A stretch of DNA of 64,000 bases, from sequence record PZ296772.1. One strand, written 5' to 3'. This stretch comes from a phage. Within the stretch, counting starts at the first letter, position 1, and each line of letters starts with the position of its first letter. The position numbers were made by a program, and so were the translations under genes. Positions 5,259-51,320 of the stretch are shown here, one piece after another. Below the pieces are notes generated by a model. It had not been told where the DNA came from. It did no database searches and saw nothing but the letters and a program-made list of their open reading frames with translations.

Positions 5259-5732
5259 ATGTTATTATCAGGCGCAAAATATAAAGAAGAAAAACAAAAA
5301 TTTTATGATGCACAGAATGGTAAGTGTCCTATTTGCCACCGTGAATTAGACCCTGATGTTCAAGGTAACCATCTTGACCACGACCATGAATTAAACGGGC
5401 CAAAAGCTGGTAAGGTTCGTGGTTTACTATGTAACCTGTGCAATGCAGCAGAAGGTCAAATGAAGCATAAGTTCAACCGTTCTGGTCTTAAAGGTCAAAA
5501 CGTTGATTACCTCGAATGGCTTGAAGCTCTTCTTGCTTATTTGAAACAAGATTATTCTGATAATAATATCCATCCTAATTTTGTTCCAGACAAAACTAAA
5601 GAGTTCTCAAGACTAGGTAAAGAGGAAATGATGACTGAGATGCTTCAAAGAGGATTTGAATATAATGAATCTGATACTAAAACACAATTAATAGCTTCAT
5701 TCAAAAAGCAGCTTAGAAAGAGTTTAAAATGA
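5259..5732 (+). CDS. 49: endonuclease VII (Holliday junction resolvase)
   Basis: 157 aa; CPICH...CNLC zinc cluster and HLDHDH motif matching T4 gp49 from memory. Confidence 0.9.
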   Translation: MLLSGAKYKEEKQKFYDAQNGKCPICHRELDPDVQGNHLDHDHELNGPKAGKVRGLLCNLCNAAEGQMKHKFNRSGLKGQNVDYLEWLEALLAYLKQDYSDNNIHPNFVPDKTKEFSRLGKEEMMTEMLQRGFEYNESDTKTQLIASFKKQLRKSLK

Positions 5733-6271
5733 CGATTGAAAAAGAAATTGAAGGACTAATTCATAAAACTAATAAAGACCTTTTAAACGAGAATGCTAAT
5801 AAAGATTCTCGTGTTTTTCCAACTCAACGGGACCTTATGGCTGGTATTGTGTCTAAACACATTGCCAAAAATATGGTCCCGTCTTTTATTATGAAAGCGC
5901 ATGAAAGCGGAATTATCCATTTCCACGATATTGATTATTCCCCTGCTCTTCCATTTACTAATTGCTGTTTAGTAGATTTAAAAGGAATGCTTGAGAACGG
6001 ATTTAAGCTCGGTAATGCACAGATTGAAACTCCTAAATCAATCGGCGTTGCTACTGCAATTATGGCGCAAATTACTGCACAGGTTGCTTCCCACCAATAT
6101 GGCGGAACGACTTTTGCGAATGTAGATAAAGTACTTTCTCCTTATGTTAAACGCACCTATGCAAAACATATTGAGGATGCAGAAAAATGGCAAATCGCTG
6201 ATGCGTTGAATTATGCTCAATCTAAAACAGAAAAAGATGTATATGACGCGTTTCAGGCGTATGAGTTAATT
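5729..6271 (+). CDS. nrdD: anaerobic ribonucleotide reductase NrdD, exon 1 (3' boundary approximate)
   Basis: 181-aa N-terminal part; reading frame resumes about 1 kb downstream in another frame. Confidence 0.8.
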
Positions 6272-6477
6272 TAATTCAGGCTCATGTAAAACCGGTCTAA
6301 ACGGGGAACCTCTCTAGTAGACAATCCCGTGCTAAATGTTCTTTTGAACTAAATGCCTAACGACTAACCGTGATGAATGTAGCGGTGTAGAATAGAAGCT
6401 AATGCTATTCGAAACGGCCGGCATCGAAAGATGAAGATATAGTCTAATCTGCATGGCGACATGCAGCAGTCATCTTG

Positions 6478-6485
6478 TATAAATA
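6478..6485 (+). promoter_or_regulatory. T4-type late promoter TATAAATA inside intron
   Basis: exact tataaata 30 bp upstream of endonuclease ORF, preceded by ctgcat/atgcag hairpin. Confidence 0.55.
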
Positions 6486-6514
6486 AGATTATCTTATGAA
6501 TACGAGGTGAAACA

Positions 6515-7285
6515 ATGAAATGGATAAAAAGACGTTGTACTAAAATAAAAGATAAAGACGCATTTACATACTTAGTTAAGTTTTCTAATGGCGACATTTA
6601 TATCGGTTATAAAAAATTTAGAACAATTAAAAACAAGCCCACAAACTGGAAAACTTACACAACGTCATCTAAGTATATAAATGAACGCTTAAAAACTGAT
6701 ACACCTACTAAATGGATAATTTTAAAAACATTTGATAGTTATAAAGATGCATTAAAACATGAAGAAGAGGTCATACGTAAATATTTTTATAGCAAAAAAT
6801 GTTTAAATAAATCCATAGGCGGTAAAAAGTTTTATAAGCATCCGGATACTGAAGAACATATTCAAAAATTAAGAGATGCTCATAAGGGTAAAGTGTTATC
6901 CGAATCTCATAAAAACAATATAAAATCTTCTGTGGCTGAATATTATGCTAAAAACAGAAGATCTAAGGAACATGTGCAAAATAATATCAATAGTCGAAAA
7001 AGTAAAAAACAAGTATCGATAAAGCTTAAAAATAAAACTTTTAGAAGTTTTAAAAAAGCAGCGGAATATTTAAATTGCACTGAAAGTGAAGTCGAAACTC
7101 ATCCTCTTGTTTTGAGTATTAAGACTACTATTCATAAAGTTCCTGAATATGTGGTTGTTGACGGTATTAAGTATACGTCTTATATAGAAGCAGCTAAAGC
7201 GCTAAATTTTCATCCTAGCACTATAAAAGAACGTTGCATATCTATGGACTATCCAAATTTTGTTGTTTCATATAAACGGGCATGA
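6515..7285 (+). CDS. GIY-YIG homing endonuclease, I-TevII-like
   Basis: 256 aa; N-terminal FTYLVKF...DIYIGYKK GIY-YIG motif; lysine-rich DNA-binding C-terminus; lies wholly inside the intron. Confidence 0.8.
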   Translation: MKWIKRRCTKIKDKDAFTYLVKFSNGDIYIGYKKFRTIKNKPTNWKTYTTSSKYINERLKTDTPTKWIILKTFDSYKDALKHEEEVIRKYFYSKKCLNKSIGGKKFYKHPDTEEHIQKLRDAHKGKVLSESHKNNIKSSVAEYYAKNRRSKEHVQNNINSRKSKKQVSIKLKNKTFRSFKKAAEYLNCTESEVETHPLVLSIKTTIHKVPEYVVVDGIKYTSYIEAAKALNFHPSTIKERCISMDYPNFVVSYKRA

Positions 7286-7292
7286 ATTTGCG

Positions 7293-8591
7293 ACTCATGC
7301 TGAATATAATGATGAAGTAAATACACTTTTCAGCTCTAATGGTCAAACGCCTTTTGTAACAATTACATTTGGTACGGGAACTGACTGGACTGAACGAATG
7401 ATTCAGAAAGCAATTCTGAAAAATCGTATTAAAGGTCTTGGTCGTGATGGGATAACTCCTATTTTCCCTAAGCTTGTTATGTTCGTTGAAGAAGGTGTTA
7501 ATCTTTATAAAGATGATCCGAACTATGATATTAAGCAGCTTGCTTTAGAGTGTGCAAGCAAAAGGATGTATCCTGATATTATTTCAGCTAAGAACAATAA
7601 AGCTATCACTGGTTCATCTGTTCCTGTTTCTCCAATGGGTTGCCGTAGTTTCTTGAGCGTATGGAAAGATTCGACTGGTAATGAAATTCTTGATGGACGT
7701 AATAATCTTGGTGTTGTAACACTGAATCTTCCTCGCATCGCGTTAGATTCTTATATTGGAACACAGTTCAATGAACAGAAATTTATCGAATTGTTCAATG
7801 AACGAATGGATTTATGTTTTGAAGCTTTGATGTGTAGAATTAGTTCCTTAAAAGGAATTAAAGCTACTGTTGCTCCTATTCTTTACCAAGAAGGTGCATT
7901 CGGGGTTCGTCTTAAACCCGATGACGATATAATTGAGTTATTTAAAAACGGTAGAAGTTCAGTGTCTTTAGGATACATTGGTATTCACGAATTGAATATT
8001 CTTATCGGTCGTGATATTGGACAAGAAATTTTAACTAAAATGAATGCTCATCTTAAACAGTGGACTGAAAGAACTGGGTTTGCTTTTAGTTTGTATTCTA
8101 CTCCTGCTGAAAACCTTTGCTATCGCTTCTGTAAACTTGATACAGAAAAATATGGAAGTGTAAAGGATGTTACTGATAAAGGTTGGTACACTAACAGTTT
8201 CCATGTTTCAGTAGAAGAAAATGTTACTCCGTTTGAAAAGATTTCTCGTGAAGCGCCATATCATTTCATTGCGACAGGTGGTCACATTTCTTATGTTGAA
8301 CTTCCTGATATGAAAAATAACTTAAAAGGTCTTGAGGCTGTATGGGATTATGCCGCACAACATTTAGATTATTTTGGTGTTAATATGCCAGTAGATAAAT
8401 GTTTTACATGTGGAAGTACCCATGAAATGACTCCTACTGAAAACGGATTTGTTTGTTCTATTTGCGGAGAAACTGATCCTAAAAAGATGAATACCATAAG
8501 AAGAACATGTGGTTATTTGGGAAATCCGAACGAACGCGGATTTAATCTCGGTAAAAATAAAGAAATCATGCATAGGGTTAAACACCAATGA
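7293..8591 (+). CDS. nrdD: anaerobic ribonucleotide reductase NrdD, exon 2 (5' boundary approximate)
   Basis: C-terminal CxxC...CxxC zinc site and glycyl-radical motif RRTCGYLG. Confidence 0.85.
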   Translation, partial: THAEYNDEVNTLFSSNGQTPFVTITFGTGTDWTERMIQKAILKNRIKGLGRDGITPIFPKLVMFVEEGVNLYKDDPNYDIKQLALECASKRMYPDIISAKNNKAITGSSVPVSPMGCRSFLSVWKDSTGNEILDGRNNLGVVTLNLPRIALDSYIGTQFNEQKFIELFNERMDLCFEALMCRISSLKGIKATVAPILYQEGAFGVRLKPDDDIIELFKNGRSSVSLGYIGIHELNILIGRDIGQEILTKMNAHLKQWTERTGFAFSLYSTPAENLCYRFCKLDTEKYGSVKDVTDKGWYTNSFHVSVEENVTPFEKISREAPYHFIATGGHISYVELPDMKNNLKGLEAVWDYAAQHLDYFGVNMPVDKCFTCGSTHEMTPTENGFVCSICGETDPKKMNTIRRTCGYLGNPNERGFNLGKNKEIMHRVKHQ

Positions 8592-9058
8592 ATTATGATA
8601 GATTTTATCCCTGTGATTTTGTGAATGGCCCTGGATGCAGGGTCGTTCTTTTCGTCACAGGTTGTTTGCATAAATGCGAAGGGTGTTATAATAAATCAAC
8701 ATGGAATGCTAGAAATGGTATTCCATTCACTGGTGAAACACTGGAACAATTAATTGAATGTTTGAATAATGATTATACAGAAGGATTAACTATAACTGGG
8801 GGAGACCCTCTTTATCCTGATAACAGAGATGTGATTCATTGCATTGTTCAAACAGTAAAAAATCTTTATCCCAGTAAAAGCATTTGGTTGTGGACAGGAT
8901 ATAAGTTTGAAGATATTAAACAACTAGAAATGCTTAAATATGTTGATGTTATTATTGATGGGAAGTATGAGAAAAATCTTCCGACCAAAAAGCTGTGGCG
9001 AGGATCAGATAATCAGCGACTTTGGTCAAATACCGATGGGGTGTGGAAACATGATTAA
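8588..9058 (+). CDS. nrdG: anaerobic RNR activating enzyme NrdG (radical SAM)
   Basis: 156 aa; CLHKCEGC radical-SAM cysteine triad; start overlaps nrdD stop. Confidence 0.9.
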   Translation: MNYDRFYPCDFVNGPGCRVVLFVTGCLHKCEGCYNKSTWNARNGIPFTGETLEQLIECLNNDYTEGLTITGGDPLYPDNRDVIHCIVQTVKNLYPSKSIWLWTGYKFEDIKQLEMLKYVDVIIDGKYEKNLPTKKLWRGSDNQRLWSNTDGVWKHD

Positions 9059-13054: not shown

Positions 13055-13253
13055 CATCTCTAACTACTTAGAAGAACCTTTTGACGAAGCAATCCCTTAT
13101 TTGGTAAAACTGTTGGGTCGTGAATTTAAAATTAATTTTGACATCGACCCTTTGAACCCACATGACGTGTCATTTTCGATAAATGGGACTCCGGTTGAGT
13201 ATGAGTTCTGTATTGAAGAGGATGGACGTTTTTATTTTAATTTAATGAGATAA
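13038..13253 (+). CDS. hypothetical protein
   Basis: about 70-aa ORF overlapping end of gene 55. Confidence 0.4.
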
Positions 13254-13254
13254 T

Positions 13255-13578
13255 ATGACTACCGAGATTATTGAAAATAAAGAAGCAGAAGATGCAGTAG
13301 CTAAAATGCTACAAGAAATCCAAAAGAAAAATGAAGCTGAAGCACGTAAAAAATCCGAAAAGATTCTTAAAAAGAATCGTTTTGAACTAAACCGTCTTTA
13401 TGCTCATGCTCAAGAAGCAGCAATTCAAAACAACTTCGAAGCTTACGAATATGCTATTAAGAAATCTCGGGATATTCTACGACAACCATATAATGACAAG
13501 TTAATTAAAATCCAGTGGGTTACTACTCGTCAGGCTATTGAGGACATCATTAATGGCGCTAGTTCAAACAAAGTTTAA
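13255..13578 (+). CDS. hypothetical coiled-coil protein
   Basis: 107 aa, Lys/Glu-rich helical. Confidence 0.5.
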   Translation: MTTEIIENKEAEDAVAKMLQEIQKKNEAEARKKSEKILKKNRFELNRLYAHAQEAAIQNNFEAYEYAIKKSRDILRQPYNDKLIKIQWVTTRQAIEDIINGASSNKV

Positions 13579-13759
13579 ACGATTGAAGCTGAACGCAGGG
13601 TTCACCCTTAAATTGGGAGGTCCTCTTTGTGTTAAAATCTCTGAAAAGGAATATCACGACAGTTCTATTACAGAAATTTGTCCACCTATTGTAAAGGCAG
13701 ACCCAAAACAACTCGTGTGGGTTGATTCATTTCAAGTTAAGAAATGGTGGAAACGATGA
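13553..13759 (+). CDS. hypothetical protein
   Basis: 68-aa ORF from ATG 13553. Confidence 0.4.
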   Translation: MALVQTKFKRLKLNAGFTLKLGGPLCVKISEKEYHDSSITEICPPIVKADPKQLVWVDSFQVKKWWKR

Positions 13760-13798
13760 GAGAAATCGATTTAGGCATTTTCTGAGAGGTGATTATGC

Positions 13799-13972
13799 AT
13801 GACGAACATCCCGACTTCTGAAAATTTCGATAAAATCCGTAAAGGCAAAGCAGAAAGAATGAGACGTTTTAAAGAGTCTTATGATAAAGCTAAAGCCGAA
13901 GGAACTATTACGTACAAGCCCATTCGATTTAAAAGTTCAAATGAGCCTCTGTACGGTGTACTATGTGGATAG
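13799..13972 (+). CDS. hypothetical small protein (below ORF-track cutoff)
   Basis: 57-aa ORF MTNIPTSENFDKIRKGKAERMRRF...; ends at terminator hairpin. Confidence 0.35.
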   Translation: MTNIPTSENFDKIRKGKAERMRRFKESYDKAKAEGTITYKPIRFKSSNEPLYGVLCG

Positions 13973-13996
13973 GAACTCTTCGGAGTTCCTTTTTTG
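13971..13996 (+). terminator. rho-independent terminator
   Basis: aggaactc-ttcg-gagttcct hairpin plus tttttt. Confidence 0.7.
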
Positions 13997-14018
13997 CTTT
14001 ATAAACGGATGATAGAAT
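13993..14018 (+). promoter_or_regulatory. MotA-dependent middle promoter for gene 47
   Basis: MotA box tttgcttta, 11-bp gap, -10 tagaat; 24 bp before ATG. Confidence 0.6.
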
Positions 14019-14041
14019 GAATTAACTAATGAGGAAATAAT

Positions 14042-15061
14042 ATGAAAATTTTGCACTTAGGCGACTTCCATATCGGAGTCAAACAAGACGACCCATGGGT
14101 TCAAGATATTCAACGTGATGGTATTCGTCAAGCAATTGAATACTCTAAGAAACACGGGATTAAAACTTGGATTCAGTACGGCGATTGGTTTGACGTCCGT
14201 AAAGCAATAACACATCGTACAATGGAATTCAATCGTGAAATCGTTGATATGATTTCTAAAGCAGGCATTCACGTTCATGTCACGATAGGAAACCATGACA
14301 TGGCGTTTAAGAATACAATAACACCTAACACTGTTTCTGAATTGTTAACTCAATTTGAAAACTTTACTATTTACGAGCGTCCGACTACTGTAGATTTTGA
14401 CGGATGTCTGATTGATATCGTTCCATGGATGTGTGAAGAAAATACAGGTGAAATCTTAGAGCACATCAAGACTTCTTCCGCAGCGTATTGTGTTGGGCAC
14501 TGGGAACTGAACGGCTTTTATTTCTATAAAGGAATGAAGTCTCATGGGCTTGAACCTGATTTCTTAAAGACCTATAAACAAGTCTGGTCCGGCCACTTCC
14601 ACACAATCTCTGAAGCTGCTAACGTCAAATATATTGGGACACCATGGACCCTTACTGCAGGCGATGAGAACGACCCACGCGGATTCTGGGTATTTGACAC
14701 TGATGTTGAACGTATGGAATTTATTCCTAATGAAACAACATGGCATCGACGAATCACTTATCCGTTTAAAGGCAAAATCAATTATTCTGATTATACTAAT
14801 CTAGCCGTACGTGTTATAGTATCAGAAATTGATTCAGAGTTGACTAAGTTTGAATCTGAACTTGAAAAAGTAGTTCACTCTCTTCGTATGGTTTCTAAAG
14901 TTGATAACAGTGTTGAATCTGATGATGACCAGGAAATCGAGATTAAATCACTTCAAGATATCATTAAAGAATATATTGACGCGATTCCAGATATCTCAGA
15001 CGAAGACAGAGAAGCGCTGGTCAAATATTCCAACGAACTTTATATTGAGGCAACACAATGA
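14042..15061 (+). CDS. 47: recombination nuclease subunit gp47 (Mre11/SbcD-like)
   Basis: 339 aa; phosphoesterase motifs LGDFH, GDWFD, GNHD, GHFH. Confidence 0.9.
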   Translation: MKILHLGDFHIGVKQDDPWVQDIQRDGIRQAIEYSKKHGIKTWIQYGDWFDVRKAITHRTMEFNREIVDMISKAGIHVHVTIGNHDMAFKNTITPNTVSELLTQFENFTIYERPTTVDFDGCLIDIVPWMCEENTGEILEHIKTSSAAYCVGHWELNGFYFYKGMKSHGLEPDFLKTYKQVWSGHFHTISEAANVKYIGTPWTLTAGDENDPRGFWVFDTDVERMEFIPNETTWHRRITYPFKGKINYSDYTNLAVRVIVSEIDSELTKFESELEKVVHSLRMVSKVDNSVESDDDQEIEIKSLQDIIKEYIDAIPDISDEDREALVKYSNELYIEATQ

Positions 15062-23434: not shown

Positions 23435-24070
23435 ATGAAAACTACTCCTATTACTATCGCTATTGACGCAATCATAAAACAAGCTTCTTCTTTGGCCGCT
23501 ATGGCCAAAGTAATTAGTCAAAACCCTGCTCGTTATAATGCTATTCTAGAAACTCTTCGACGCCCGGGACTTAGTAATTATGAAAGCCGAGTAATTATTA
23601 CAGGTGTTGGTAAGAATGCTAATATTGCAACTAAAGCTTCTGAGACATTTGCTTCACTCGGTATCCCGAGTATGTACTTGAACACCGGGCACTATTCTCA
23701 CGGTGATGCAGGATTTATTGCGCCTAATGATGTATTAGTTCACATCAGTCGTTCTGGTAAGACTGAAGAAATGATAGGTGTTGCTAAACATCTTCGTATG
23801 ATTCGTCCTCAGGTTAAACAGATTCTGTTACATTGTAACCCTGACATTCCACAAGAATACGAAGCTCTTTTTGATTATACGTTCTGTACCGGTATCGCGG
23901 TAGAAGTTGACGAGAACTCTTTAGCTCCGACAATGTCAACCACATTGTTGTTAGCGCTTATCGATACGTTCGCTATCAACCTTTCGTCTGAGCGTGGATT
24001 TACCTCTAATGACTTCCTTAAGTTCCACCCTGGTGGTGCACTAGGTGCCATGTTACGAGGCGAACAATGA
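23435..24070 (+). CDS. SIS-domain sugar-phosphate isomerase, KdsD/GutQ-type arabinose-5-phosphate isomerase-like
   Basis: 211 aa; GVGKNANIA phosphosugar-binding loop, HGDAGFI, LAPTMSTT signature, HPGGALG. Confidence 0.75.
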   Translation: MKTTPITIAIDAIIKQASSLAAMAKVISQNPARYNAILETLRRPGLSNYESRVIITGVGKNANIATKASETFASLGIPSMYLNTGHYSHGDAGFIAPNDVLVHISRSGKTEEMIGVAKHLRMIRPQVKQILLHCNPDIPQEYEALFDYTFCTGIAVEVDENSLAPTMSTTLLLALIDTFAINLSSERGFTSNDFLKFHPGGALGAMLRGEQ

Positions 24071-24251: not shown

Positions 24252-25937
24252 ATGAAAAAAGCTGTTATTCTTGGTGCTGGACTGGCAACTCGTTTGTATC
24301 CAATAACGCATCATATTCCAAAAGTTCTTGTGAACTATAAACAAGACACTATTCTGAGCAATTTGTATACAATTTATTCTGACCTTGGCGCAGATGAAAT
24401 TATTGTAGTAGTTCATTCAAAATTTGCTGAAACTGTTCGAGCTTATTGTGAGCAAGAAGGGTTCAATGTGACTATTCGTACAGTTGATGAAGCGTATGGT
24501 TCTGCTTATGCTCTTGCTAAATTACACAAAGATTTAGACGGCCATAATGTAATTGTTAACTGGTGTGATATTATTCCTGATTTTGGTTCATGGTCTTGGA
24601 ATGTTAACGCAATCTATGTTAAGGGTGACGAATGTCGGTATAATTTCGACGGTGAAAATATCACTAACGTAGGTTCAACAGGTGGTAATGTTGTAGGAAT
24701 TTATCAGTTCAAAGACTGGGAATTCTATATGGGTTCTACTGATGAGGAAATTCATGAATACTGCAAAGGACGCGATTTCGTAGAATTCCTTTACAGCGGC
24801 GCATTCAATAAATCAGAGCTTATGAATCTAATTGATTTAGGTGATATGCCTAAACTTGAAAAAGCTCATGAAGTTCGTGAACTTAATCGTAGTTTTAATG
24901 CAGTTGAAATTGGTGAAGAAACTGTAACTAAATTCGCATTAACCGAACAGGGTCGAGCTCTTCAGAAAGATGAGATTTCATGGTATCTTAAAGTGAAATC
25001 AGATTCAGTTCCTCAGTTAGTTTCTGTAAATGAAAATAACTTTGAAATGGAACGTATTAAAGGTAAGCCGGCATTTGAATATATTAAATCCAAATCAAGT
25101 CTTGCTCGTCCACAAATTGTTGATGCAATTTTAGATGCACTAAAATTCAGCACAGACACGTATTTTGTAAGTCCTGAAACTGTTCGTCGTGATTTCACTA
25201 AAGAATTCTATACGAAAGTTATTGATCGTTGTGAAAGCATTCAGCCATTGATTGATTCATTTGGTAAAATCACACACGTGAACTACACTAAGATTGGACG
25301 TCTGAAGCCAATGCTGAAACAAGCTTTAGAACACCTTATTCGTTATCATAACCGTTCTCAGGGACAGTACTCTGTTATTCATGGTGACCCGAACTTCAGT
25401 AATACTATGATTACTGATAACGGCGAAGTCAAGTTTATCGACCCTCGTGGATATTTTGGCGAAACCAAGATTTACGGGCCAAAATTGTATGATGAAGCTA
25501 AAGTGCTTTATGCTGTTTCAGGTTATGATGAATTCAATGCTAATCCGACCTGGGGACAGTTTACTATTGATGAAACAACTTGTAATGTGACTATTAACAT
25601 CAATCCATTAATTTACAAATATGGAAAGATGAGTTCGTTTAACGAGTATCATCATTTGGCTGTAGCAATTATCTGGATTGCATTAGGTGGTTATTTCAAG
25701 AATAATCCACTTAAAGCGGTAGCCGCATATTATAAAGGTATGGAACTTCTGACTAAGCAATTACGTAACATGGGCCGTGTACTTCAAGATGGCTCTATTA
25801 GTTATGACGTAGCAGAACCTGTAACGGCTACTCTGATTACAAAAAATCCTGGTAAATGGGTACTAACTGATAAAGAAACTGGTGTTTCCTATCGTCCAAT
25901 CGGTGGCGATATCACTCATCAATGGGAACGAATCTAA
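24252..25937 (+). CDS. bifunctional sugar-1-phosphate nucleotidyltransferase / sugar kinase
   Basis: N-terminal LGAGLATRLYPIT resembles RmlA/GlmU GxGTRL pyrophosphorylase loop; C-terminal HGDPNFSNTMI...IDPRG resembles APH/choline-kinase-type catalytic loop. Confidence 0.7.
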   Translation: MKKAVILGAGLATRLYPITHHIPKVLVNYKQDTILSNLYTIYSDLGADEIIVVVHSKFAETVRAYCEQEGFNVTIRTVDEAYGSAYALAKLHKDLDGHNVIVNWCDIIPDFGSWSWNVNAIYVKGDECRYNFDGENITNVGSTGGNVVGIYQFKDWEFYMGSTDEEIHEYCKGRDFVEFLYSGAFNKSELMNLIDLGDMPKLEKAHEVRELNRSFNAVEIGEETVTKFALTEQGRALQKDEISWYLKVKSDSVPQLVSVNENNFEMERIKGKPAFEYIKSKSSLARPQIVDAILDALKFSTDTYFVSPETVRRDFTKEFYTKVIDRCESIQPLIDSFGKITHVNYTKIGRLKPMLKQALEHLIRYHNRSQGQYSVIHGDPNFSNTMITDNGEVKFIDPRGYFGETKIYGPKLYDEAKVLYAVSGYDEFNANPTWGQFTIDETTCNVTININPLIYKYGKMSSFNEYHHLAVAIIWIALGGYFKNNPLKAVAAYYKGMELLTKQLRNMGRVLQDGSISYDVAEPVTATLITKNPGKWVLTDKETGVSYRPIGGDITHQWERI

Positions 25938-26323
25938 TGCATCGTGTAGAAAACATGCTTAATCTTTGTTTTGATGTCGACGATTGTATAACAGAGTGGA
26001 ATAACAATCGTGATTACGTGAACTTCAAGCCAGACGTCGAAATGGTGACTGCCATTAATGCCCTGTATGATGCAGGGCATACCATAACGCTTTACACTGC
26101 TCGTGGTATGAAGTCAGTAGGTCCTGGACGTATAGCAATTGACATTCTACCGAGTCTGATTCAGAACTTGGAAAACATTGGTTTGAAGTACCATAATTTG
26201 CTAACACATAAACCAGTATATGATTGGATTATCGACGACAAAGCTATGCGTCCTGACGAATTCAAAGCTCTTATGAATAAAGGCGAATTCGAAACATTTA
26301 AATCATATAAACCGAACCTATAA
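25937..26323 (+). CDS. HAD-superfamily phosphatase (KdsC-like size)
   Basis: FDVDDCIT motif I, TLYTARG motif II, IIDDKA motif IV; about 128 aa. Confidence 0.65.
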   Translation: MHRVENMLNLCFDVDDCITEWNNNRDYVNFKPDVEMVTAINALYDAGHTITLYTARGMKSVGPGRIAIDILPSLIQNLENIGLKYHNLLTHKPVYDWIIDDKAMRPDEFKALMNKGEFETFKSYKPNL

Positions 26324-26371: not shown

Positions 26372-27541
26372 ATGCAAAAAATGAATACTTTTAAAATCGG
26401 AACGAATTTTGATTTAGCTCTTCTTGATAAAATCGTAGAGCTCAATAAAACTTATCCTAATAGCTTGATAAACGAAGTGTACGGCTCTACAAGAGAAATG
26501 GCTTTTGTAGCAGCCAGACCTGATTTTAGGCTTCCTGACGTTGACAAAAAGATGTTAGAAGATTACGTTAAACGTTGTAACGAATTAGGTATTTGCTTTA
26601 ACTATACACTCAACACGATAAATCCTGGTTCAAAAAGAGAACTAGTTGAGTGGAAGAAGAAAGCTATTCAGGATTATGTTCAGTATCTTTGGTCAATAGG
26701 CGTATGGCGTATTACTATCGCTAACCCTGTTGTTATGGAAATTGTTCGTGAAGTAAATAAAGACATTGAGATTGAAGTTTCAACAATTCTACATGTTGAT
26801 GCTGTAACTCAAATCAAATACTTGCATGACCAATATAATATCAAAAAGGTCTGCTGTGGAATTCATAAGAACCGTTCAGTTTCTTTCCTGAAGCGTGCAG
26901 CAGAGTTTTGCAATAAGAACAATATAATATTTGAAGTTCTTGTAAATGAGTTCTGTTCTAATGCTGGTAAAGGGTATACAACACATTGTAGCTATCGTGA
27001 CTCTTGCTATATTTTCCATAGTACTGATGTTACAGCTGATGATGCTAAATCCTTAAATGGATATCCAATGCAGCACTGTATTAAAGCTCGTGATACAGAC
27101 CCATTTAACTGGTTGAGAACTCGTTTTGTTCGTCCTCAAGATTTGAAACTTTATAATGATATTGGTATCACTCAATTCAAAGTTTCAGGACGTACAGGTA
27201 GCACAGACTACATTTTGAAAGTTCTTGAAGCATACGCTTCTGAAAAGTTTGAAGGTAATTTGTTAGAACTGTGGAAGCCTTTAGAGACTATTTTCACTCT
27301 TGAAAACGAAACCGAGTTTTCACATACAGTAAATATTGAAACCTCTTTGTTAGATGGCTTTTTAGAAAAAAGGTGGTTCAGACATCCAGATTTCGATTGT
27401 GCTAATGAAATCTGTGGGACGACGTGTACATATTGTGAAAGATATTATAAACGTCAGTTATCTAAAAACGGGTTAGCAGAAAACTCTATATCTATTATTG
27501 ATATAACTAACTCTGATGACGCTTTGAGGTACCCGGAATGA
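26372..27541 (+). CDS. Cys-rich protein of unknown function in the modification island
   Basis: 389 aa; cysteine-dense segment NEFCSNAGKGYTTHCSYRDSCYIF loosely reminiscent of peptidase U32-type cysteine motifs; terminal C-x-C-x5-C-T-Y-C. Confidence 0.5.
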   Translation: MQKMNTFKIGTNFDLALLDKIVELNKTYPNSLINEVYGSTREMAFVAARPDFRLPDVDKKMLEDYVKRCNELGICFNYTLNTINPGSKRELVEWKKKAIQDYVQYLWSIGVWRITIANPVVMEIVREVNKDIEIEVSTILHVDAVTQIKYLHDQYNIKKVCCGIHKNRSVSFLKRAAEFCNKNNIIFEVLVNEFCSNAGKGYTTHCSYRDSCYIFHSTDVTADDAKSLNGYPMQHCIKARDTDPFNWLRTRFVRPQDLKLYNDIGITQFKVSGRTGSTDYILKVLEAYASEKFEGNLLELWKPLETIFTLENETEFSHTVNIETSLLDGFLEKRWFRHPDFDCANEICGTTCTYCERYYKRQLSKNGLAENSISIIDITNSDDALRYPE

Positions 27542-27819: not shown

Positions 27820-28536
27820 ATGGGAAAACATAACACAATGAAATATATCAAAGCCGCAGATTTTCAAGCCGCATTTAAAGCAGTCAATCGTGAAATTTTA
27901 GAAAACCCAGAATTCGTAACTGATTCTCGTATTGGACGTTGTAATGAAATTGGGTCTATGACAGTAGTTGTTGACACTCCATCATCATTCAAAATGACCG
28001 ACCCACGTATTAACCGCATCTCTTATGAATATGCTGAAGACTTCTGGAAGTTTATGATTTCTGGTGGTACTGACGCAGAAGAAGCGTTTAAGGCATACCC
28101 TAATGTCGCTAAATTTATTTCTAAACCCAAATCAGACGCTTTGCCGGCGAACTTCAACACTTTCTATGGTCCTCGCATTGCGGCCCAATTACCAGCTCTT
28201 CTAAAAGAACTTAAAGAGAAGCCTAACTCTCGAAGAGTTGTGTTCCAAATTCTAGAAAGTTCTGATCAGGCTTTGCTTGATTCGGACGAAACGCTTGAAT
28301 ATCCATGTACTGACTCAGTGACTTATTATATTCGTGATGGTAAGCTTTATACCCACTGTCATATGCGTTCTCAGAACTGTGCTGTTGTTATGCAGTTGGA
28401 TTTTTATCTCCAAGGAAAATTACTTCATTATATCGCTAACGAATGCGGTGTAGAAGTAGGTGATTATACTCATACCATGGTAAGTGCCCATGTGTTTGAA
28501 CGTGATTTTGATTATGTTAAAGGATTCCTTGACTAA
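27820..28536 (+). CDS. 42: thymidylate-synthase-fold dCMP hydroxymethylase homologue (diverged gp42)
   Basis: 238 aa; PNSRRVV...YPCTDSVTYYIRDGKLYTHCHMRSQ aligns by eye with T4 gp42 PDSRR...MCTNTVQYLIRDKK...NMRSND. Confidence 0.65.
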   Translation: MGKHNTMKYIKAADFQAAFKAVNREILENPEFVTDSRIGRCNEIGSMTVVVDTPSSFKMTDPRINRISYEYAEDFWKFMISGGTDAEEAFKAYPNVAKFISKPKSDALPANFNTFYGPRIAAQLPALLKELKEKPNSRRVVFQILESSDQALLDSDETLEYPCTDSVTYYIRDGKLYTHCHMRSQNCAVVMQLDFYLQGKLLHYIANECGVEVGDYTHTMVSAHVFERDFDYVKGFLD

Positions 28537-29435
28537 TGGCTATTTTCCGCGTACCTATCTTGAGTATGCGGTCTTATGAAACTGGACAGTATGCTATCCT
28601 TAAGGATGGCAACTTCCAACTTCATTTGCACCGTGCTAATCCAGGTGATGTGATTACATATCCACGTAATGCATCTGATATTAAAGAATGTGAACGTCTT
28701 TTCCCGGAATTTAAGTTTGTTCCATTATGGTATAAAGATAACGCGTATAACACTCGTAAATATTTCTGGTCTGAAAATGAATTTGTGGTTGATTCATTAA
28801 TTGCTTATTATGATTGTGATTTTCTAATCACAGATATCACTGGATATGATGGCGCTTTTGACGTAGAATTCAATTTCAATATCACTGCAGACCCTAATAA
28901 ACCACGTTTTTATATTGATGAATTCTTAAAAACCGACATGTTGTCTGTTAATCGTTCAATCCAAACAACTGTGTTGAATAAACGTCAAAAGGAAGTGCTG
29001 GTTAACGCTGGTGCCGATGGTAATAAGATTATCGTAACGCAGAAAGTTATACGTCCTTCCGTCATGCAGCGTCTTGTAGGTGATTTGGCTCCTATTCATC
29101 TAGATGGTATTTTTCATCCATTTCGAATTAGTGACCCATGCTATCGTTTTGAACAAGTTGTTGAATGCGCAATTCAATTAGGTCAACCGCTTTATATAAC
29201 TGATCCAAATAATAGTTTCGACAGAAATAAGTATCCTGAAGAAGCGCTGATTCGAATTTTTAATCCAACTAAAACTGAGTACTATCAAATTCTTAAAGGA
29301 CGTCCGAAGATTCAATATTTCGAAAATCCTGAAGAAGTATTCCATCCAGGTCTTGGTGAGTTCATCTACTTTAATGCTTTAATTTCTTCACCGTATAATA
29401 TACCTAAATACGAAGATGTCGTAATCGAGGAATAA
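28536..29435 (+). CDS. hypothetical protein occupying the T4 beta-glucosyltransferase position
   Basis: 299-aa ORF coupled to the gp42 homologue; no motif recognised. Confidence 0.5.
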   Translation: MAIFRVPILSMRSYETGQYAILKDGNFQLHLHRANPGDVITYPRNASDIKECERLFPEFKFVPLWYKDNAYNTRKYFWSENEFVVDSLIAYYDCDFLITDITGYDGAFDVEFNFNITADPNKPRFYIDEFLKTDMLSVNRSIQTTVLNKRQKEVLVNAGADGNKIIVTQKVIRPSVMQRLVGDLAPIHLDGIFHPFRISDPCYRFEQVVECAIQLGQPLYITDPNNSFDRNKYPEEALIRIFNPTKTEYYQILKGRPKIQYFENPEEVFHPGLGEFIYFNALISSPYNIPKYEDVVIEE

Positions 29436-29436
29436 A

Positions 29437-29985
29437 ATGGCTAAAATTATTTTAGTAGATGGCCCGGATAATGCCGGTAAAACAACTTTCATTAATGACG
29501 TAATGGAAATTAGTGAAAGATATGTAAAGATTGATTTCCCTAAACGAACAATTGATGGACGTTTCGATGTTAAGTCTCGAAATGAAGTTGGCTGTTTCGA
29601 AACGATGTTGAATTATTTAGACCCTACTAAGATTTATCTGTTAGACCGTGGATATATTAGTAACTGGGTTTATGGACGTATTCGACAAGATGCGGACTCA
29701 GTTCTTGACGTTTATGAACAGGATTATGTTCGTCTTTGCCAAAACCATGATGTGTTCACAATTATTTTAACACGTAACGAAATGACTGAAAGTTTTGAAG
29801 ACGACCTTATTACTTTGTCTTCATTAGGTTTTAATACAGTCATTTCATATTTTGAAGAGTTTGCAATTCATAACAAAATCCAAACGTATCAATTACTTAA
29901 TCATGATGGTGCTAACAAAGTTATAGGATTTAATGCAAGCGAACGTAATAATTTGATTACAGAAATCATCAAATGGGCTCGTTAA
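29437..29985 (+). CDS. P-loop nucleotide kinase-like protein
   Basis: Walker A VDGPDNAGKTT and LLDRGY (DRY-type) motif as in dNMP/thymidylate kinases. Confidence 0.6.
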   Translation: MAKIILVDGPDNAGKTTFINDVMEISERYVKIDFPKRTIDGRFDVKSRNEVGCFETMLNYLDPTKIYLLDRGYISNWVYGRIRQDADSVLDVYEQDYVRLCQNHDVFTIILTRNEMTESFEDDLITLSSLGFNTVISYFEEFAIHNKIQTYQLLNHDGANKVIGFNASERNNLITEIIKWAR

Positions 29986-38060: not shown

Positions 38061-38582
38061 ATGGCACACTTTAACGAATGTTCACAACTTATTTCTGGTG
38101 TTGATAAAGCAGAAGAAGCTTATTTTAATGCTCTGATTCACGAAGATAAAGACCCACTGCAGGTAATGCTTGATATGCAGAAATCTTTACAGGTTCGTTT
38201 GGCAAATGATAAGCCTGAACATAACAAACATCCTGATGAATTGGCTACTGCCGGTGATGTTGTTGATTGGCTGCGTAATCAGAAAGATTATATTGATGAT
38301 GAATTCCGTGAACTGCTGACTTCACTTGGCGGTATGAGCAATGGTGAAAAAGCCGCTAGCTCTGTATGGAAGCCGTGGAAAGCACAACATGCTGAATATC
38401 GTAATCGTCGTATCGATGAACTGTCTCCTGAAGACCAGCTTGAAATTAAATTCGAGATGATTGACATCCTCCACTTTGTTCTGAATATGTTCCAAGGTCT
38501 GGGTCTTTCTGCTGAAGAAATCTTTAAACTTTACTACTTGAAAAACCAACACAACTTTGAACGCCAGGATAACGGTTACTAA
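38061..38582 (+). CDS. 56: dCTPase-dUTPase gp56
   Basis: MAHFNEC...DPLQVMLDMQ...LTSLGGMSNGEKA matches T4 gp56 from memory. Confidence 0.9.
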   Translation: MAHFNECSQLISGVDKAEEAYFNALIHEDKDPLQVMLDMQKSLQVRLANDKPEHNKHPDELATAGDVVDWLRNQKDYIDDEFRELLTSLGGMSNGEKAASSVWKPWKAQHAEYRNRRIDELSPEDQLEIKFEMIDILHFVLNMFQGLGLSAEEIFKLYYLKNQHNFERQDNGY

Positions 38583-50219: not shown

Positions 50220-51320
50220 ATGAAAGTTATGTTTATCCCATCTCGTGCAGTCCCATTTAATCCTGACCGTGTACAAGGTGGACTTGAAGCAGTACATTTA
50301 AATGTGTTGAAATATCTTGTGTCCATCGGTGCTGATATTGATTATATCGGCTTTGATAATGACACGTTTGGTGACTGGAAAGTTACACACCATCCTGTTG
50401 GTCATCTGACTAAATTCAGTCTAGGTATGAGTTATACTATGGCTCGTAAGATTGTTGAACTAGCCGGCATCCATGAATACGATTTTGTTGTTACTATGGA
50501 ACCGACTAAACTAACCGTCCAAGCAATTAAAGACGCAGGTCTCTCTAAAGTTCATAAGAATTTTATGGCTACGCCATTTGAACCGGTGTCTCGTGGTATT
50601 GTTCAAATTTGGGATCAGACTATCCAGATTCACAAGAACGGTGGGAAGAGCTATGCTCCTACTAAAGCCTTCCGTGAATTTGAACGTAAATATTGTCATA
50701 TGACTTCAGCTCTTACTGACAAAATTGATTATGACTACTGGCGTGAAAATCCATTATTTGAACCTGATGACTACCCGGTTATTTGTTTGAATGAAAAACC
50801 TGAAGTTCTTCCGGCAACTGATTTGATTATTAGTGCTCAACGTTATGACACTAAGATGCGTCGCACTGATGTTGCTCTTGAAGCAATTAAAGCACTAGGC
50901 GAAAATGGTATTGGTTATTGTCCAAGCAAATGGGCACCACCAGCTAAATATCCTGTTATTATTGATGCTCCACACAGTGAAATCATGGAACGTCTTAAAA
51001 CAGCTAAAGCACTTATTAATACATGTCCTGACACAGGTACGGTAGAGAATAGTTCTATTGAAGCCATCTCTAAAGGTGTCCCTGTAATCCAGTTAGTTTT
51101 TAAGGATTATCCTCATGCGACATTCGAATACGACCCAGATACTGTGCGTGTAGAAATTGATTCCTCTACTCCTAAGAAAGAAGTAGTTGCGCTTTACACA
51201 AAAGCTGTATTAGAATTCACTGACACATACAAAGCTCGAGTTAAACGTGCTGAAGCAGTATGGAAGAAGTATAATCGAGATGCAGTTGTTGCGATGTGGG
51301 ATAAAATCTTCACAGCGTAA
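50220..51320 (+). CDS. GT-B fold glycosyltransferase (GT4-like), candidate DNA hydroxymethylcytosine pentosyltransferase
   Basis: 366 aa; N-terminal MKVMFIPSRAVPFNPDRVQGGLEAVHLNVLKYL and C-terminal GTVENSSIEAISKGVPVI resemble GT1/GT4 donor-binding motifs. Confidence 0.6.
   Translation: MKVMFIPSRAVPFNPDRVQGGLEAVHLNVLKYLVSIGADIDYIGFDNDTFGDWKVTHHPVGHLTKFSLGMSYTMARKIVELAGIHEYDFVVTMEPTKLTVQAIKDAGLSKVHKNFMATPFEPVSRGIVQIWDQTIQIHKNGGKSYAPTKAFREFERKYCHMTSALTDKIDYDYWRENPLFEPDDYPVICLNEKPEVLPATDLIISAQRYDTKMRRTDVALEAIKALGENGIGYCPSKWAPPAKYPVIIDAPHSEIMERLKTAKALINTCPDTGTVENSSIEAISKGVPVIQLVFKDYPHATFEYDPDTVRVEIDSSTPKKEVVALYTKAVLEFTDTYKARVKRAEAVWKKYNRDAVVAMWDKIFTA

Follow-up and report, generated by a model that had tools for sequence, protein, structure and literature searches.

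A U32-family protein in the RB69-type DNA modification operon, a candidate oxygen-independent cytosine hydroxylase

This study concerns an open reading frame (ORF) at positions 26372-27541 of a 64,000-nucleotide stretch of phage DNA (sequence record PZ296772.1; the whole stretch is hereafter called the window), which runs on the + strand from an ATG to a stop codon and encodes 389 amino acids. Profile and fold comparisons place its product in the U32 family, and comparative genomics makes it rather probable that this protein would serve as an O2-independent, prephenate-dependent C5-hydroxylase of deoxycytidine monophosphate (dCMP) or of cytosine, the anaerobic counterpart of the ThyA-family 5-hydroxy-dCMP (5hodCMP) synthase gp48. 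The window phage is a Mosigvirus, an RB69-like T-even phage, with 99.7% identity to phage PTK and 99.3% to Bas47 'AlbertHofmann' (over 6 kb), and the ORF is the homologue of RB69 ORF050c / RB69p050, an equivalence drawn via the annotation of Shf125875. Its second ATG, at 26381, is probably the true start, which we favour because a GAG lies 9 nt upstream of it and because the homologues and the HY126 annotation begin with MNTFK.

RB69 DNA carries arabosylated 5-hydroxycytosine in place of all C, and the ThyA homologue gp48 makes 5-hydroxy-dCMP, binding flavin mononucleotide and drawing its oxygen from O2, as shown by 18O2 labelling (PMC13326640, NAR 2026). There RB69p050 is confined to a table, with a fold match to 5d88 (Lee et al. 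2026, PMC13326640), and the discussion mentions other pyrimidine hydroxylation pathways without 5hodCMP synthase homologues but does not connect them to RB69p050. The U32 proteins with a defined role, RlhA, TrhP and UbiU/V, each support an O2-independent hydroxylation that needs prephenate (PMC10990095, PMC5727448, PMC6747719). While the gene and its U32 fold were already known, the functional assignment, the linkage to chorismate mutase and 3-deoxy-D-arabino-heptulosonate 7-phosphate (DAHP) synthase, and the displacement of the ThyA-like enzyme come from this analysis. In the full-text literature searched, which did not cover He et al. 2026 (Nat Chem Biol) and Mahler et al. 2025 (Cell Host Microbe), we found no report of them and no paper that ties U32, chorismate mutase or prephenate to phage or to hydroxycytosine.

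Family, fold and conserved cysteines

The initial annotation of this DNA had assigned no clear family to the ORF and had seen in it only a faint likeness to U32-type proteins. The likeness proves much firmer than that, and the protein does have a family. Pfam PF01136 (Peptidase_U32) matches residues 97-289 with 42.2 bits, where the gathering cutoff is 22.4 (E=7.4e-11), PHROG 5757 ('peptidase') matches with 887 bits, and a precomputed PF01136 match is found on nearly all of 120 listed homologues. An AlphaFold2 model built from 30 homologues has a predicted local distance difference test score (pLDDT) of 90.3 and a predicted TM-score of 0.90. Comparison of this model with the PDB by Foldseek, a check that the initial annotation had itself proposed, returns 5d88 as the top match (E=1.4e-7, TM 0.66 normalised to the target), the TIM barrel of Mk0906 and the sole solved U32 structure, and the remaining matches are generic TIM barrels. 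In a single-sequence phmmer search nothing meaningful was found among PDB sequences, so that it took profiles and fold comparison to place the protein, and no NCBIfam equivalog cutoff was reached (the UbiU model NF047963 gave 18.4 bits against 440). When the family profile was aligned by hhalign to the four E. coli U32 paralogues, RlhA was best (E=3.7e-5 over 204 columns), and TrhP reached a probability of 7.5%. The Pfam scan found PF01136 as the only domain and did not detect DUF3656. Because of this absence, and because the protein has 389 amino acids against 653 in RlhA, domain content indicates that it is not an RlhA orthologue.

The protein has 13 cysteines, or 3.3%, where 68 ORFs of the window average 1.26%, and it ranks third in the window, which bears out its initial description as Cys-rich. 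A Cys-dense central segment, EFCSNAGKGYTTHCSYRDSCYIF, occupies residues 193-215, and a C-terminal cluster, C343-x4-C348-x3-C352-x2-C355, corresponds to CANEICGTTCTYC. The latter had been described as a CxC...CTYC cluster; the cluster is indeed present, but its first spacing is CX4C and not CxC. In an alignment of 121 homologous sequences extending to about 48% identity, C161, C195, C206, C212, C236, C343, C348, C352 and C355 are invariant, as is E193, and C180 is present in 118 of the 121. E193, C206 and C212 align with E161, C169 and C176 of RlhA, and the two cysteines also with C169 and C176 of UbiU. In RlhA, C169 and C176 are completely essential for formation of 5-hydroxycytidine (ho5C) 2501, and the E161A variant restores only a very small amount (PMC5727448). 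In UbiU, C169 and C176 are among the four [4Fe-4S] ligands assigned by paired Cys-to-Ala mutants, and C176 is important in vivo (PMC6747719).

The C-terminal cluster also resembles the C-terminal cysteines of RlhA, whereas UbiU, UbiV and TrhP have no such four-Cys cluster. In a MAFFT alignment C343, C352 and C355 fall on RlhA C580, C611 and C614, a correspondence that may reflect Cys-Cys scoring alone; of these RlhA residues, C580 and C611 are essential (PMC5727448). The residue set of the RlhA type, one Glu with two Cys from the U32 motif and a Cys cluster at the C terminus, is found complete in the phage protein. The invariant C161, C195 and C236 could be the remaining ligands of a variant cluster site, and the presence of C343 beside C348, C352 and C355 suggests a fully ligated auxiliary site. 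The protein would then be a single-chain U32 Fe-S enzyme whose TIM barrel holds a variant catalytic Cys cluster and whose C-terminal part adds a second site of four Cys. The spacing C348-x3-C352-x2-C355 has the CxxxCxYC form of Radical SAM enzymes, but that family was rejected: there is no Radical_SAM Pfam match at E<=1, the motif lies C-terminal to the barrel, and C343 is a fourth invariant cysteine.

Linkage to chorismate mutase, glycosyltransferases and the ThyA-like enzyme

As the initial annotation had recognized, the ORF is embedded in a modification operon, with modification genes on both sides and all on the + strand. The order is arabinose-5-phosphate isomerase (API), NTP-transferase/kinase, HAD phosphatase, U32, gp49, ThyA-like enzyme, glycosyltransferase (GT) and TMK-like kinase (Table 1). 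The gp48 homologue of the window bears the diagnostic D169N. A scan of the operon for sigma-70 promoters and terminators gave a number of sites no higher than in shuffled sequence.

Chorismate mutase (Pfam CM_2, gathering cutoff 27, scores of 38-86 bits) is linked to U32 in three different arrangements. In T-even-like loci, a CM_2 protein of 79-132 amino acids (38-46 bits) occupies the slot between U32 and the ThyA-like gene, and its start and the stop of U32 overlap; the gene at this place is already annotated as chorismate mutase in Erwinia phage Virsaitis27. This small T-even-like form was found by tblastn in 51 of 50,697 phage records, LC53, 92A1 and Thanatos among them, and the 40 matches listed are all from T-even-like phages of Enterobacterales or Shewanella, beside U32/ThyA-like genes. 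In jumbo-phage contigs of 219-294 kb, a CM_2 protein of 107 amino acids (55 bits) overlaps the U32 stop. In further loci, a DAHP-synthase-chorismate-mutase fusion lies one or two genes upstream of U32. Both of the latter arrangements recur on contigs of metagenome-assembled genomes (MAGs). The product of chorismate mutase is prephenate. Prephenate is genetically required for RlhA (PMC5727448) and for UbiU/V, for which it is the labelled oxygen donor (PMC10990095). The phage-borne fusion, a shikimate-pathway gene, looks dedicated to prephenate supply.

The loci searched comprise 47 loci on viral contigs, two metagenome contigs and 11 loci from the genome collection. U32 and a ThyA-like gene are both present in 17 T-even-like loci, and none of the 48 divergent viral/MAG loci (816 kb in total) holds a ThyA-like protein of the 5hodCMP-synthase type (D169N). 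The sole ThyA-family match among the divergent loci (L021; L numbers are our locus labels) was set aside as a canonical D169/N177 thymidylate synthase. The commonest neighbour of U32 is a gp46:47-like glycosyltransferase, which Lee et al. predict to be the one proximal to the base. Of 24 non-redundant divergent loci 18 have it, with a median of 3 bp between the two genes, and a dNMP-kinase-like and a dCTPase-like gene are other neighbours. Phage contigs of 40-60 kb, for example, carry a dCTPase-like gene, a TMK-like kinase, a GT and U32, followed by DNA polymerase or by TAGT-type GTs, dUTPase/DCD and UDP-galactopyranose mutase. One completely reconstructed viral contig of 43,970 bp carries a TMK-like kinase, dUTPase/DCD, three GTs (including a TAGT) and GLF, and no thymidylate-synthase, ThyX or TET family was found in it by Pfam (ORFs of at least 90 amino acids over 92% of the contig, the main ORFs in its last 3.5 kb). 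Judged by gene content, U32 is the only candidate for the hydroxyl-handle step in these phages without a ThyA-like enzyme.

The distribution of the two genes differs in their hosts. Enterobacterales and Shewanella are facultatively anaerobic hosts, Acinetobacter and Rhizobium aerobic ones. The ThyA-like enzyme is found in 374 phage records, including 57 of Acinetobacter and 20 of Rhizobium. U32 is found in 222, and among the matches listed the hosts all belong to Enterobacterales or Shewanella. The U32 tallies name ten genera and spread 12 further records over seven unnamed ones; Acinetobacter and Rhizobium are missing from them, and the 12 records could hide at most a few. The cluster of Acinetobacter phage DLP1 is collinear with the window operon, but its HAD phosphatase is followed directly by the ThyA-like gene, with exactly the U32 cassette missing. 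Among 185,579 species-representative genomes the U32 clade occurs in only 11 loci, mostly in MAGs from anaerobic lineages.

Proposed role and competing explanations

The chorismate mutase linkage, the adjacency to the predicted base-proximal GT, the replacement of the ThyA-like enzyme and the host distribution together support a role in O2-independent hydroxylation during base modification. The demand of gp48 for O2, the complete replacement of C in RB69 and the anaerobic ribonucleotide reductase genes nrdD/nrdG point the same way. We propose that the protein would convert dCMP to 5-hydroxy-dCMP without O2, or possibly act on cytosine after its incorporation into DNA. Family membership, fold, Cys conservation, gene linkage and distribution are observed directly, and Fe-S binding, the use of prephenate, the hydroxylase chemistry and the substrate are inferred. 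A nucleotide-level substrate is favoured because kinase-like and dCTPase-like genes are adjacent and RNA-binding extensions are absent; the adjacency of TAGT genes recalls the TET systems, and a reaction at the DNA level is possibly what it reflects. In Mosigvirus/RB69-type phages, U32 would be the anaerobic counterpart of the ThyA-like synthase encoded two genes downstream, and both enzymes would feed one route that leads through the dNMP kinase and DNA polymerase to the arabosyltransferases. It would be redundant with gp48 in air and needed without O2, since these phages destroy dCTP by their dCTPase (Table 1) and replace all cytosine. Prephenate would come from host PheA/TyrA in the window phage, and in many relatives from their own chorismate mutase or DAHP-synthase-chorismate-mutase fusion beside U32. 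In uncultured phages of anaerobes that have no ThyA-like enzyme, U32 would be the only base hydroxylase in many.

Several observations weigh against this proposal. Of the canonical U32 [4Fe-4S] motif, CX6CX15CX3/4C (Pelosi et al. 2019), the phage protein has only a part: its spacing is CX5C where RlhA has CX6C, and the third and fourth cysteines (C192 and C196 in RlhA) have no aligned counterparts. No U32 protein has so far been reconstituted in vitro as a hydroxylase (PMC10990095). The phage chorismate mutase hidden Markov model (HMM) finds no chorismate mutase in the window phage. The absence of the ThyA-like enzyme covers the whole sequence in one contig only and elsewhere applies within +-10 kb. 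Moreover, the gene is not universally required, as Dhakaviruses such as JS98, which grow on E. coli, have the ThyA-like pathway without U32. The JS98 cluster (L085, NC_010105.1 22069-26243), with NTP-transferase/kinase, HAD, TMK-like, ThyA-like and GT genes and neither U32 nor API, provides a natural 'minus U32' comparator on the same host species.

Two further points weigh against base hydroxylation and speak at the same time for an enzyme of the sugar pathway, which would hydroxylate, reduce or epimerise a pentose or a nucleotide-sugar precursor. RB69p050 carries the label 'sugar or heterocycle reductase' in Lee et al. 2026, as the Basel-collection annotation names a 'putative enzyme involved in UDP-arabinose biosynthesis', and U32 co-occurs with sugar-activation genes in divergent loci (NTP-transferase/kinase in 11/24, API in 7/24). 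The gene also stands between the sugar-activation and the base genes in the operon, and TIM barrels are common among sugar enzymes. However, API, AfhE and AfhF suffice to account for the synthesis of UDP-arabinofuranose (PMC13326640 citing He et al.), and Acinetobacter phages make tri-arabinosyl-5-hydroxycytosine with a collinear cluster that has no U32. The constant neighbour of U32 is a GT rather than a sugar gene, the type-B loci pair it with GLF/TAGT-type sugar genes and with neither API nor NTP-transferase, and the linkage to chorismate mutase would be left without a rationale. We consider a sugar-pathway role quite unlikely. The initial annotation had conceived of a metal-dependent step in base or sugar modification; it is the base branch, as hydroxylation, that comparative genomics supports, and the sugar branch has become the less likely one.

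A hydroxylase acting on some other nucleic-acid target, either RNA (5-hydroxyuridine 34, ho5U34, in tRNA of phage or host, or ho5C in rRNA) or another base or position, such as dUMP to 5-hydroxy-dUMP, also appears unlikely to us. Its closest relative by hhalign is RlhA, and the characterised nucleic-acid U32 enzymes act on RNA, but DUF3656 and the further C-terminal domains found in RlhA and TrhP are missing from the phage protein, and E. coli already has TrhP, TrhO and RlhA. The genes for dCMP deaminase and dUTPase/DCD that in some loci lie close to U32, and the 'type D' context in which U32 accompanies a fusion of nucleoside monophosphate kinase and methyltransferase, would fit a different base; the constant neighbours, however, are DNA-base glycosyltransferase, dNMP-kinase-like and dCTPase-like genes and not tRNA genes, and the known modification of these phages is at cytosine C5. 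A genuine collagenase-like peptidase, as the MEROPS/Pfam name and the 'peptidase' annotation of most GenBank entries and many phage records would have it, is hardly credible: some U32 proteins have been reported to be collagenolytic (PMC5727448), yet no proteolytic catalytic mechanism is known for the family, the invariant residues are cysteines of the Fe-S type, and the gene lies within nucleotide/DNA-modification operons in every lineage examined, besides its linkage to chorismate mutase. All three explanations are weaker than C5-hydroxylation of dCMP or cytosine without O2.

Comparison with known systems shows where the proposed cytosine hydroxylase would stand. RlhA (YdcP), the 5-hydroxycytidine-2501 synthase of E. 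coli 23S rRNA, has in common with it the U32 domain, the Glu and the first two cluster cysteines, and an extra C-terminal Cys cluster that is essential in RlhA and invariant in the phage protein, and the chemistry would be alike, a cytosine C5-hydroxylation dependent on prephenate and Fe-S. However, overall identity is about 19%, DUF3656 is found in RlhA alone, and RlhA acts on a ribosome-assembly intermediate, whereas the phage enzyme would presumably take a deoxynucleotide or DNA. UbiU-UbiV, the O2-independent ubiquinone hydroxylases, are likewise U32 Fe-S proteins with prephenate as oxygen donor, as is presumed for the phage protein; they back up the flavin-/O2-dependent UbiI/H/F anaerobically, in the same way as U32 is proposed to back up gp48. 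They differ in forming a heterodimer with one cluster per subunit, in contrast to the single phage chain with two Cys clusters, and in acting on lipids and not on nucleotides. TrhP (YegQ), the prephenate-dependent ho5U34 hydroxylase of tRNA, performs a pyrimidine C5 hydroxylation, as is proposed for phage U32, but it has a different C-terminal domain and gives a weak profile match. TrhP has an O2-dependent alternative, TrhO, which parallels the proposed pair of U32 and gp48. The ThyA-family synthases themselves (RB69 gp48, DLP3 gp80 and the HY126 enzyme) would share with U32 the product 5hodCMP, the operon, the kinase and the GTs, but they have an unrelated fold, depend on flavin and O2, occur in phages of strict aerobes without U32, and are absent from the divergent U32 phages. 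The TET/JBP dioxygenase-TAGT systems follow the same logic, in which an oxidiser makes a hydroxyl handle on cytosine and a glycosyltransferase decorates it; TET enzymes, however, depend on Fe(II)/2-oxoglutarate and O2 and act on 5-methylcytosine in DNA, whereas the U32 loci have no TET and their proposed oxidant is independent of O2.

In a broader form, the chances of which seem to us evenly balanced, no O2-independent, prephenate-dependent hydroxylase acting on a DNA precursor or on DNA would have been known before the phage U32 clade. U32 and chorismate mutase, or U32 and the DAHP-synthase-chorismate-mutase fusion, would make up an anaerobic 'hydroxyl-handle' module sufficient in itself, in which U32 would duplicate the ThyA-like synthase of RB69-like phages so that the whole oxygen range is covered, and would in many uncultured phages of anaerobes be the sole route to glycosylated, perhaps methoxylated, 5-hydroxypyrimidine DNA. 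Among the coliphages in common use for therapy and as models are those with arabinosyl-5-hydroxycytosine (Mosigvirus, Winklervirus and relatives), a modification that overcomes many restriction and CRISPR systems. They inhabit the gut and have genes for an anaerobic ribonucleotide reductase, whereas the pathway as published requires O2; if our proposal is true, this gap would be closed, and protected DNA could be built inside the oxygen-free gut. The U32 family would also gain a first substrate that is small, soluble and possibly at the nucleotide level, and with it a tractable system for prephenate-dependent hydroxylation in vitro, which has not been achieved for UbiU/V, TrhP or RlhA. Moreover, the proposal would explain shikimate-pathway genes in phages and make U32 a marker by which 5-hydroxypyrimidine DNA could be recognised in phages of anaerobes that are uncultured.

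Other features of the window and of related loci

Table 1. Positions of the U32 gene, its parts and other genes discussed (window coordinates, except for the last row)
Feature	Position	Strand	Basis
U32-family protein, RB69 ORF050c / RB69p050 homologue	26372..27541	+	ORF, Pfam PF01136, PHROG 5757, AlphaFold2 model
U32 domain, residues 97-289, TIM-barrel core	26660..27238	+	Pfam envelope; hhalign to E. coli RlhA
C161 codon, invariant Cys 5' of the central segment	26852-26854	+	
Central Cys segment, residues 193-236 (E193, C195, C206, C212, C236), presumed catalytic-domain [4Fe-4S] site	26948..27079	+	RlhA/UbiU alignment; conservation
C-terminal CX4CX3CX2C cluster (C343, C348, C352, C355), presumed second metal site	27398..27436	+	Invariant in 121/121; MAFFT against RlhA
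Arabinose-5-phosphate isomerase (API), SIS domain	23435..24070	+	
Bifunctional NTP-transferase/kinase for UDP-arabinose, RB69 gp52:53 / AfhE homologue	24252..25937	+	Pfam NTP_transferase and weak kinase-family matches; role from PMC13326640
HAD-like phosphatase, RB69 gp51 / AfhF homologue	25922..26323	+	
gp49 homologue, 79 amino acids	27538..27777	+	Start overlaps the U32 stop (ATGA)
ThyA-family 5-hydroxy-dCMP synthase, RB69 gp48 homologue, flavin- and O2-dependent	27820..28536	+	Pfam Thymidylat_synt, 56.9 bits; D169N signature; function from PMC13326640
Predicted base-proximal arabinosyltransferase, RB69 gp46:47 homologue	28536..29435	+	Neighbour of U32 across phage lineages
Thymidylate-kinase-like nucleotide kinase, RB69 gp45 homologue	29437..29985	+	
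dCTPase/dCDPase, gp56-like, removes unmodified dCTP	38061..38582	+	tblastn with Bas47 protein, 97.7% identity
Second DNA arabinosyltransferase, RB69 gp3 homologue	50220..51320	+	tblastn with Bas47 protein, 99.7% identity
nrdD, interrupted, exons 5729-6265 and 7305-8588	5729-8588		
nrdG, after nrdD	8588-9058		
DAHP-synthase-chorismate-mutase fusion (DAHP_synth_1 + CM_2), uncultured phage/MAG contigs	L036:8332-9384; L031:8411-9430; L078:6931-7965		

The gene directly downstream of U32, gp49, is translationally coupled to it and could encode an accessory factor. It is kept in Mosigvirus and in some relatives, and the latter then carry chorismate mutase too. Its position is the slot of the chorismate mutase gene in related phages, but neither Pfam nor the phage chorismate mutase HMM matches it, and both genes stand together in some phages; the idea that gp49 is a degenerate chorismate mutase was therefore rejected.

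Elsewhere in the window, the phage encodes the anaerobic ribonucleotide reductase genes nrdD and nrdG. Within the insertion in nrdD, Rfam RF00028 detects a group I intron (73 bits, gathering cutoff 50, RNA match at 6235-6466), and an ORF at 6515-7285 encodes a GIY-YIG/NUMOD homing endonuclease, whereas nrdD of Bas47 is uninterrupted.

Several divergent U32 loci have further features. A TAGT-family gene lies directly downstream of U32 in two of them (L004:11098-11997 and L027:11086-11976), in phages without a TET/JBP gene, and it is accompanied there by UDP-galactopyranose mutase and further GTs, a gene set that suggests a multi-sugar, galactofuranose-containing 5-hydroxypyrimidine modification. 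In a fourth U32 context (L084:3044-7137, also L083, L081, L082 and L075), a Pfam GP88 protein is followed by a fusion of guanylate kinase and S-adenosylmethionine-dependent methyltransferase of 425-443 amino acids, a protein of about 270 amino acids of unknown function, and U32. This context occurs in one isolate genome, of Phocaeicola faecalis, and in MAGs of BRC1, Tannerella, Woesearchaeota and Bacillota, mostly uncultured lineages, and the gene order hints at nucleotide hydroxylation followed by O-methylation. L075 has a second, distant U32 paralogue at 13227-14357. A protein of 200-220 amino acids without a significant Pfam match, which we call 'cl4', lies immediately upstream of U32 or inside the module in at least nine divergent loci (for example L044:9280-9939; also L028, L029, L031, L034, L036, L037, L040, L042, L078 and L080), at the position of the T-even HAD phosphatase. 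In Winklervirus (Virsaitis27 and LC53), a Seg-like homing endonuclease gene lies between the HAD phosphatase and U32 (L052:5352-5990 and L072:3078-3716).

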